A DNA stretch of 64,000 nucleotides, taken from positions 48,431-112,430 of IMG/VR virus record IMGVR_UViG_3300042474_001151. One strand, given 5' to 3'. Below are positions 63,204 through 63,293 of this stretch, piece by piece. Within the stretch, counting starts at the first letter, position 1; each line of letters starts with the position of its first letter. A model generated the notes under the pieces. The model had not been told where the DNA came from, searched no databases, and saw only the letters and a list, made by a program, of their open reading frames with translations. Made by a program: the position numbers and the translations under genes. Source of the stretch: a virus (lineage: Duplodnaviria; Heunggongvirae; Uroviricota; Caudoviricetes).

Positions 63204-63293
63204 GGGGAGGTGGGTGAGTGGTTTAAACCGACAGCCTCCGAAGCTGTTATTGGACTTAACATTCAATCGAGAGTCCGAATCTCTTCCTCCCCG
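63204..63293 (+). tRNA. class II (long variable arm) tRNA, anticodon CCG; Ser-like body
   Basis: Acceptor GGGGAGG/CCTCCCC; D arm GGT-GAGTGGTTTAA-ACC; anticodon stem ACAGC/GCTGT with loop CT-CCG-AA; variable arm ATTGGA/TTCAAT; T arm GAGAG-TCCGAAT-CTCTT; discriminator G; CCA not encoded. Confidence 0.85.

Follow-up and report, generated by a model that had tools for sequence, protein, structure and literature searches.

A phage-encoded tRNA with a serine-type body and an arginine-type CCG anticodon arm

Which amino acid is carried by a transfer RNA (tRNA) whose body is built like that of a serine tRNA and whose anticodon is one of arginine? The question is raised by a gene for a tRNA with anticodon CCG (hereafter the CCG tRNA) near the end of a 64,000-nt stretch of viral DNA, here called the window, which is part of a 176-kb IMG/VR phage record (32% GC, CheckV completeness 53%) that we refer to as G000, position 1414 of the window being position 49844 of G000. 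To our knowledge, long variable arms are found in bacteria only in the tRNAs for Leu, Ser, Tyr, and selenocysteine (Sec). Seryl-tRNA synthetase (SerRS) recognises this long arm, G73, and the first acceptor pairs regardless of the anticodon, and class-I synthetases approach a tRNA on the side away from the variable arm.

Sequence comparison indicates that the CCG tRNA is a chimera, and its carriers are a family of large lake phages, putatively of Bacteroidota. As to what the molecule carries, two lines of evidence diverge: the identity rules point to serine, and the pattern of codon use speaks for arginine, or at least for CGG posing no danger during infection. We tentatively favour, with a little less than even confidence, the reading that the CCG tRNA is a functional elongator of chimeric build through which CGG is read partly or mainly as Ser.

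Structure and origin of the CCG tRNA

The gene, its parts and the sequence just upstream are as follows.

63204..63293, + strand: class-II tRNA, apparently chimeric, with anticodon CCG, from position 1 to G73 (ARAGORN, Rfam, 31 IMG/VR contigs, and two compensatory pairs between lineages)
63204..63229, + strand: acceptor 5' strand and D arm of Ser(GCU) type (UG-GGUG-AGUGGUUUAA-ACC), with U20 and with G3 pairing C70 (comparison with Bacteroidota tRNA-Ser(GCU))
63231..63247, + strand: anticodon arm ACAGC-CUCCGAA-GCUGU, of Arg/class-I type and not of Ser(GCU) type (15-nt core and frame comparison)
63248..63268, + strand: 21-nt variable region composed of U44, a 6-bp stem ATTGGA/TTCAAT, a 7-nt loop, and C48 (sequence; relatives)
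63269..63293, + strand: T arm, acceptor 3' strand, and G73, with T stem GAGAG/CTCTT (G49.U65) and T loop UCCGAAU (C55)
63161..63189, + strand: sigma-70-like hexamers TTGATT-17-TATATT upstream of the tRNA (conserved in the related locus L067; not above chance)

ARAGORN calls a single tRNA in the window (63204-63294 on the + strand, anticodon CCG), and Rfam family RF00005 matches 63204-63293 at 54.3 bits (gathering score 29, E 2e-10), so that membership in the tRNA family is plain. Read from the sequence, the molecule is a canonical 7/5 cloverleaf: the acceptor stem is GGGGAGG/CCTCCCC (7 bp) with G73 at 63293; the D arm has a three-pair stem (G10-C25, G11-C24, U12-A23) extended by G13.A22; the D loop is AGUGGUUUA, with a U after G18G19 where tRNA-Arg carries A20; and the anticodon, at 63238-63240, sits in the loop CU-CCG-AA. 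The variable region has a Ser-type junction, with one unpaired base on each side, matching phage and host tRNA-Ser. The T loop has C55 in place of the near-universal U55. CCA is not encoded, and minimum-free-energy folding of the molecule gives no D arm, which is usual behaviour for tRNAs. All of the structural details in an initial annotation of this locus (the cloverleaf, the 21-nt variable arm, G73, U20, G13-A22, and the loops) hold in the sequence. The same annotation had given the gene its own promoter; the hexamers TTGATT-17-TATATT are indeed present, but promoter-like matches around the gene in this AT-rich stretch number 5, which is not above the level of chance given the 3.1 expected from shuffles. 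No terminator was found 3' of the tRNA.

Bacterial serine identity lies in G73 with G1-C72 and G2-C71 (PMC9976931, PMC5389517), and bacterial arginine identity in A20, called the main determinant, and in C35 with G36 or U36 and A73 or G73, G73 being allowed (PMC9976931). The CCG tRNA has G73, G1-C72, and G2-C71 as well as the long variable arm with its Ser-type junction, and it lacks a serine anticodon (NGA or GCU), carrying CCG in 31 of 31 contigs. From the arginine set it has C35 with G36, and G73; it lacks the class-I build, with a variable loop of 4-5 nt (here 21 nt), and it lacks A20, the base being U20 in both lineages described below (GGUUUAA in one, GGUCUAA in the other), where a single substitution would create A20. 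Every phage and host-type Arg tRNA examined has GGAUAG with A20, and all five Arg tRNAs of G150 read GGAUAGA. Position 73 of the Arg tRNAs is A in the Bacteroidota sampled and A or U in the phage's own two. Nor does the molecule have the form of tRNA-Sec (branch of 8/5 or 9/4, 6-bp D stem, anticodon UCA), its own branch being 7/5, its D stem 3 bp, and its anticodon CCG.

The origin of the body was traced with a covariance model, R1, built from the phage copies of the CCG tRNA, with which 151 Bacteroidota genomes were searched. Thirty loci surrounding its best matches were examined, and every long tRNA in them is a tRNA-Ser; 31 of these tRNAs are Ser(GCU), scores of Ser(GCU) in Bacteroidota reach 92 bits, and most of the 31 have a D arm identical to that of the CCG tRNA (UG-GGUG-AGUGGYYKAA-ACC), with T stem GAGAG and acceptor GGAGAGG. 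G11-C24, odd by E. coli rules, is the norm for Ser(GCU) in Bacteroidota. When R1 was run on the full set of 44 tRNAs from one Bacteroidota genome, Ser(GCU) scored 92.2 bits, Ser(CGA) 81.5, Ser(GGA) 70.9, Tyr 56.9, Leu 45.9, Arg(ACG) 43.6, and Arg(CCG) 37.2. The initial annotation had looked to isotype scoring for a choice between Ser and Arg, and scoring with R1 gives serine (Ser(GCU) 92.2 versus Arg(CCG) 37.2 bits). These comparisons indicate that the body derives from Bacteroidota tRNA-Ser(GCU), with which it has in common the D arm, the T stem GAGAG/CUCU(C), the acceptor GGNGAGG, G73, and the variable-arm junction.

The phage molecule nonetheless differs from its apparent source in more than being phage-borne and in having CCG rather than GCU. 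Pair 3-70 is G-C in both phage lineages and A-U in 30 of the 31 host-type Ser(GCU) (A3-U70 is also found in all four Ser isoacceptors of G150, and is a feature of nearly all Bacteroidota tRNA-Ser sampled that the CCG tRNA lacks); position 55 is C in both phage lineages and U in 31 of 31; position 65 is U in both and C in 30 of 31, making pair 49-65 G.U instead of G-C; and the variable stem has 6 bp as against 7-8 in Bacteroidota tRNA-Ser(GCU). The remaining shared derived states lie in the anticodon arm, at pairs 29-41 and 31-39 and at positions 32, 34, and 36. Those at 3-70, 55, and 65 may act as anti-determinants that keep SerRS away, or may simply be drift.

The anticodon arm has other affinities. 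Its 15-nt core, CAGCCTCCGAAGCTG, is the anticodon arm of genuine 75-nt class-I tRNA-Arg(CCG) in 12 of 12 loci checked; across 401 Bacteroidota genomes this string turns up 18 times, and it is one base off the Arg(ACG) arm. Compared with tRNA-Arg(CCG) in 12 genomes checked out of the 401, the CCG tRNA has an identical loop (CUCCGAA), four of five identical stem pairs, and the same codon to read, but not the 75-nt length, the 5-nt variable loop, A20, or A73. With the anticodon left out, the remaining frame of 14 positions shows 0/14 differences from Arg(UCU) and Gly(UCC) of G150, 2/14 from Arg(ACG) and Arg(CCG), and 7/14 from Ser(GCU). As a match unique to tRNA-Arg the frame was rejected, being present also in Gly(UCC) of G150; it is the 15-mer, anticodon included, that alone is specific to Arg. 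Because the arm is not Ser-like and its core equals that of Arg(CCG), the molecule appears to be a chimera, in which a Ser(GCU) body bears the anticodon arm of a CGN decoder, acquired via recombination or convergence. The initial description of a serine-type body with an arginine anticodon was thus right on both counts, the body being that of Bacteroidota tRNA-Ser(GCU), but it missed the Arg-type anticodon arm.

Conservation and genomic setting

The 5' 32-mer of the CCG tRNA is found in 26 other IMG/VR contigs, all with CCG and a long arm, and a looser pattern and a 19-mer raise the total to 31 contigs, with CCG in 31 of 31. A second, diverged lineage (L049, L051, L055, L064) differs from the first by compensatory changes, pair 30-40 going from G-C to A-U and pair 52-62 from A-U to G-C, while CCG, U20, C55, G3-C70, and the six-pair variable stem (with a bulge) are unchanged. 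Among relatives the variable stem is kept at six pairs as its loop drifts in length, and neither the Ser-type variable-arm junction nor G73 is lost in any variant. Identity of the tRNA is 97% or higher across contigs in which the proteins on either side share 56-98%; most copies have an A27.C43 mismatch, and the window copy restores pair 27-43 as A-U. At least half of the sampled words of the 1.4-kb stretch that bears the tRNA occur in 18 lake-water DNA runs with separate study codes. An assembly error in the anticodon, which the initial annotation had named as the case that would overturn it, is excluded because 31 of 31 contigs keep CCG and the second lineage has compensatory changes.

Outside this family the search was negative: blastn of the CCG tRNA against a phage GenBank collection gave no match, and a scan of 185,579 species genomes for bacterial or prophage copies, using one exact Ser-type D loop plus CUCCGAA, gave 12 chance matches and 0 tRNAs. 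In L012 and L019 the tRNA lies between other genes, with homologues of window 8981-9736 upstream and, directly 3' of it, a homologue of G000 113688-114158 (window 65258-65728, past the window end). As the flanks differ there and the tRNA stays, the tRNA moves as its own unit.

A description of the CCG tRNA as the only tRNA of its genome would be wrong, the record being 53% complete and its relatives bearing a cluster of 22-25 tRNAs elsewhere, which is common to seven contigs. In G001, a 251-kb carrier, 21-22 tRNAs lie at 45.6-50.6 kb and the CCG tRNA lies alone at 246.8 kb, some 200 kb off. The cluster anticodons pooled from the seven contigs supply each box with a single U34 or G34 reader and add Arg(ACG) and Arg(UCU), these two being canonical class-I tRNAs with A20 that the first description had missed. 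It had also missed that, by standard wobble rules, the cluster reads all sense codons but CGG (inosine does not pair with G) and that the CCG tRNA fills this gap. The near-minimal cluster (G001 45.6-50.6 kb; L184-L189) includes a predicted Ile(UAU) and three CAU tRNAs, and with its one U34 reader per four-codon box it resembles the sets of Mollicutes or organelles.

The relative G414 (288 kb, 92% complete) shares 115 of the 235 G001 proteins, at a median identity of 57%, and has the tRNA cluster; the CCG tRNA and the fibre genes discussed below are both absent. The region of G001 at 200-251 kb, which corresponds approximately to window 1-64000, is lineage-specific: 1 of its 50 proteins has a homologue in G414, as against 114 of 185 elsewhere. 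Since G414 lacks both the CCG tRNA and the fibre genes, the tRNA belongs to an accessory fibre and modification module and not to the core set. Phage tRNA clusters that offset codon usage or replace tRNAs cut by host defences are one comparison; this phage family has such a cluster, and the CCG tRNA adds its missing anticodon. Unlike the members of such clusters, however, the CCG tRNA lies about 200 kb away, is absent from cluster-bearing relatives, and is not built as the isotype it would replace.

Serine or arginine at CGG codons

Under the reading that we favour, host SerRS, which reads the variable arm, G73, and G1-C72/G2-C71 irrespective of the anticodon, would serylate the CCG tRNA; the Arg-type anticodon arm would let it compete effectively on the ribosome with host tRNA-Arg(CCG); and CGG would be decoded partly or mainly as Ser in infected cells. 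Partial charging by host arginyl-tRNA synthetase (ArgRS) through C35, G36, and G73 could make decoding mixed. Reading as Ser is preferred because the body scores as Ser, A20 is absent, the variable stem is maintained, and Ser bodies with foreign anticodons insert Ser. The damage would probably fall mostly on host proteins made after infection, because the phages use far less CGG than Bacteroidota with similar tRNAs. CGG stands at 0.24-0.70 per 1000 codons in the phages (38 of 54,323 codons in G000, 19 of 77,623 in the carrier G001, and 36 of 86,820 in the non-carrier G414) and, as a guide to the host that is only indicative, at 12.7-15.2 per 1000 in loci from those Bacteroidota whose tRNAs are most similar.

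Several systems show what such a body can do. The allo-tRNAs are Ser-type molecules with a long variable arm, G73, and non-Ser anticodons (including those of Arg), some of them in phages, and in E. coli they put Ser at Leu codons, with growth arrest leading to cell death when induced (PMC5389517). They are defined by an 8/4 or 9/3 acceptor/T branch (PMC5389517), to which the CCG tRNA does not conform: it is 7/5, because U8 faces U65 and an eighth acceptor pair is impossible. The main text of that paper does not mention CCG (PMC5389517), and the CCG tRNA goes beyond the allo-tRNAs in its grafted, cognate-type anticodon arm and its place in a phage accessory module beside a full phage tRNA set. 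The nematode nev-tRNAs (PMC3333845, PMC4300185), the Candida tRNA-Ser(CAG) (PMC2246281), and an engineered tRNA-Ser(UCU) (PMC8473984) likewise join class-II bodies to foreign anticodons; they are charged according to the body, with detectable ambiguity in some and not in others (PMC3333845, PMC4300185, PMC2246281, PMC8473984), and in yeast a tRNA-Ser with an Arg anticodon puts Ser at Arg codons at 3% (PMC8473984). Those systems are eukaryotic, none is phage-encoded, the nev-tRNAs are Leu-type, and none pairs a Ser body with a native Arg anticodon arm. A phage tRNA that combines a Ser body with CCG is not described in the literature searched.

A number of observations weigh against reading as Ser, and most concern the phages' own CGG codons, which are concentrated in fibre-like genes.

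1..17898, + strand: Ser/Thr-rich fibre-like genes in which, together with 50062-55497, CGG is concentrated (CGG counts)
50062..55497, + strand: fibre-like gene of 1811 amino acids with four CGG codons (CGG counts)
Window 1414, 1933, 6746, 12150, 12513, and 52624 (G000 49844, 50363, 55176, 60580, 60943, and 101054): CGG sites in copies of the motif KNR[VI]DSIE

At 17 CGG sites in codon alignments with relatives, the alternatives are Arg in 51% and Ser in 5%, a substitution pattern like that of AGA, AGG, and CGT and unlike that of Ser codons. The conserved Arg of the fibre motif KNR[VI]DSIE is CGG in six of seven copies here, and AGG, AGA, CGT, or CGA in the seventh and in the copies of relatives; since the copies swap CGG for other Arg codons, the residue is truly Arg. 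The initial claim that CGG is Arg in this phage is thereby confirmed and extended. The share of CGG among CGN codons is 6.1% in the carrier G001 and equally 6.1% in the non-carrier G414, from which it follows that carrying the tRNA has neither purged nor boosted CGG genome-wide; a purge or gain in carriers was accordingly rejected, on one carrier and one non-carrier. CGG is also enriched in the fibre genes of both G000 and G001. In G000 it accounts for 22 of 182 Arg codons in fibre-like genes and 16 of 1566 elsewhere (odds ratio 13, p 4e-13), a grouping that was chosen post hoc and in which 8 of the 22 come from two repeated motifs; in the G001 homologues of those genes it accounts for 8 of 176 as against 11 of 2307 (p 2e-5). 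For the second lineage (G406, G407) the enrichment is not significant (4/185 vs 7/738, p 0.25), and as a general property it was set aside, being strong in G000 and clear in G001 only. CCG is, moreover, precisely the anticodon that the phage tRNA set lacks, which would suit an ordinary function as tRNA-Arg, and the fixed changes at 3-70, 55, and 65, where SerRS may touch the tRNA, could weaken serylation. Finally, one 151-nt RNA-library contig bridges 63228-63378, reaching from within the tRNA, of which it covers the 3' two-thirds, into the start of the downstream gene, but this is evidence of neither maturation nor charging, and DNA may have been carried over into the library.

Two further features of these codons may be mentioned. 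In the KNR[VI]DSIE copies CGG directly follows A-AAA-AAT, a perfect X-XXY-YYZ slippery heptamer, where a hungry CGG could favour frameshifting. Six of the 38 CGG codons precede ACA (CGGACA) and one more precedes ACT, above what Thr usage seems to predict; the CGGACA excess may reflect a motif at the DNA level.

The strongest competing explanation, which we regard as somewhat unlikely while taking it seriously, is that of a genuine tRNA-Arg on a class-II scaffold, charged by host ArgRS through C35, G36, A38, and G73, shielded from SerRS by the changes at 3-70, C55, and U65, and supplying CGG decoding to the fibre module. It accounts for an arm core identical to that of real tRNA-Arg(CCG), for a cluster that leaves only CGG unread, for CGG behaving as Arg in its substitutions and at conserved Arg sites, for its 10- to 13-fold enrichment among the fibre-gene Arg codons of G000 and G001, and for the joint absence of the tRNA and those fibre genes from G414, which is 92% complete. 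The long arm need not clash with ArgRS, because class-I synthetases approach from the opposite side. G73, for its part, is permitted in bacterial Arg identity (PMC9976931). Against this, A20 is absent in both lineages, and the full Ser-type arm, junction, and G73 are kept, so that SerRS should still charge the molecule; capture of a whole host tRNA-Arg(CCG) would have been a simpler route to the same end. The CGG enrichment is weak in the second lineage and in G000 comes partly from paralogous motif copies, and no class-II tRNA-Arg is described in the literature searched. The initial annotation had included an atypical tRNA-Arg that needs a phage synthetase, a proposal left without support, as neither the SerRS-type core PF00587 nor the ArgRS core PF00750 was found in five related contigs (28-75% complete).

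If CGG is read as Ser, as we tentatively prefer, the purpose of the tRNA could be that of a codon-selective weapon, although we consider this improbable: a Ser-charged adaptor bearing the arm of host Arg(CCG) would put Ser at Arg positions of the proteins that the host synthesises once infected, such as induced defence proteins, and leave the phage largely spared, since it has hardly any CGG and brings its own tRNAs for all the other codons. As a variant, the ambiguity would yield mixed Arg and Ser versions of the CGG-bearing tail fibres.

Neighbouring genes, other roles, and significance

The genes around the CCG tRNA are the following.

60470-61471, + strand: radical S-adenosylmethionine gene (Pfam)
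61468-62508, + strand: Cys-rich TIM-barrel protein of 346 amino acids, possibly of peptidase-U32 type (ESM Atlas, AlphaFold model)
62471-63160, + strand: Methyltransf_24/YrrM-like methyltransferase (Pfam)
63327..64000, + strand: gene for a secreted, outer-membrane-like protein, running off the window (Bacteroidota-type signal-peptide-like start)

The upstream gene order is kept in most, though not all, related loci, the U32-like and methyltransferase pair not being adjacent to the tRNA in L012 and L019. The family of the 346-residue protein has 1198 relatives, many of them fused to a YrrM-type O-methyltransferase domain (PF13578), and the protein and the next gene together represent a split form of a widespread fusion of about 550 amino acids, called 'O-methyltransferase YrrM' in some sources; E197, C199, C203, C233, C322, C326, and C329 are invariant. 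The AlphaFold model (predicted local distance difference test score, pLDDT, 86) has as its second-best PDB match the U32 protein Mk0906, with the lowest root-mean-square deviation among the top matches, and ESM Atlas likewise points to U32. In B. subtilis, U32 proteins and YrrM lead to 5-methoxyuridine at tRNA position 34, and the E. coli U32 protein RlhA is required for 5-hydroxycytidine in 23S rRNA (PMC6599085). The pairing of the 346-residue protein with the Methyltransf_24 gene recalls the trhP/trmR pair, which makes 5-methoxyuridine at tRNA position 34, and by this analogy the two are a candidate lead for a modifier of C34 in the CCG tRNA, albeit as a pair that is widespread. Downstream, contigs from three metatranscriptome runs (Logan assembled contigs) cover the gene in relatives, and that gene and the CCG tRNA may be co-transcribed.

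More improbable still than the weapon is a role off the ribosome, whether as a seryl donor for a neighbouring modification enzyme, as a competitor or decoy towards a host factor recognising either the anticodon arm of tRNA-Arg(CCG) or the body of tRNA-Ser, or as a processing signal for the downstream mRNA, with an anticodon for the rare codon CGG kept as the least harmful. Such a role would suit a tRNA that sits apart from the cluster, in an accessory module rich in modification enzymes, with C55 and G49.U65 that are unusual in a working elongator, and with no terminator before the downstream gene and an RNA-library contig spanning both. It is opposed by the retention of the tRNA in L012 and L019, where both flanks differ, and by the absence of any aminoacyl-tRNA-using family among the neighbours scanned (ten proteins against Pfam and five against NCBIfam, and none via PDB sequence searches). 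The non-ribosomal Ser donor listed among the options of the initial annotation becomes less likely because pairs 29-41 and 31-39 and position 32 of the anticodon arm have been changed to what CGG/CGN decoders use and CCG is invariant in 31 contigs; neither a donor nor a processing signal would need such features. Last, the idea of a decaying, functionless leftover from the capture of a host tRNA-Ser gene, or of a product of faulty assembly, is close to refuted: C55 and the A27.C43 mismatch in most copies look like defects, but the tRNA stays nearly identical beside flanking proteins that are 56-98% identical, the second lineage has compensatory changes at 30-40 and 52-62, the surrounding 1.4-kb stretch recurs in the 18 lake-water DNA runs of separate study codes, and the window copy mends 27-43 to A-U.

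The question of charging is open to direct test with a standard charging assay and a reporter, given so short a molecule and such ordinary candidate enzymes. Either outcome would be new. If the CCG tRNA carries arginine, the rule that confines long variable arms to the tRNAs for Leu, Ser, Tyr, and Sec would be broken, and the molecule would show SerRS kept off a full Ser-type body and ArgRS working without A20, which would be useful for the design of orthogonal tRNAs. If it carries serine, it would be a natural case of sense-codon ambiguity in bacteria and a natural, conserved, virus-encoded mistranslating tRNA, and thus a new route by which phages act on host translation.

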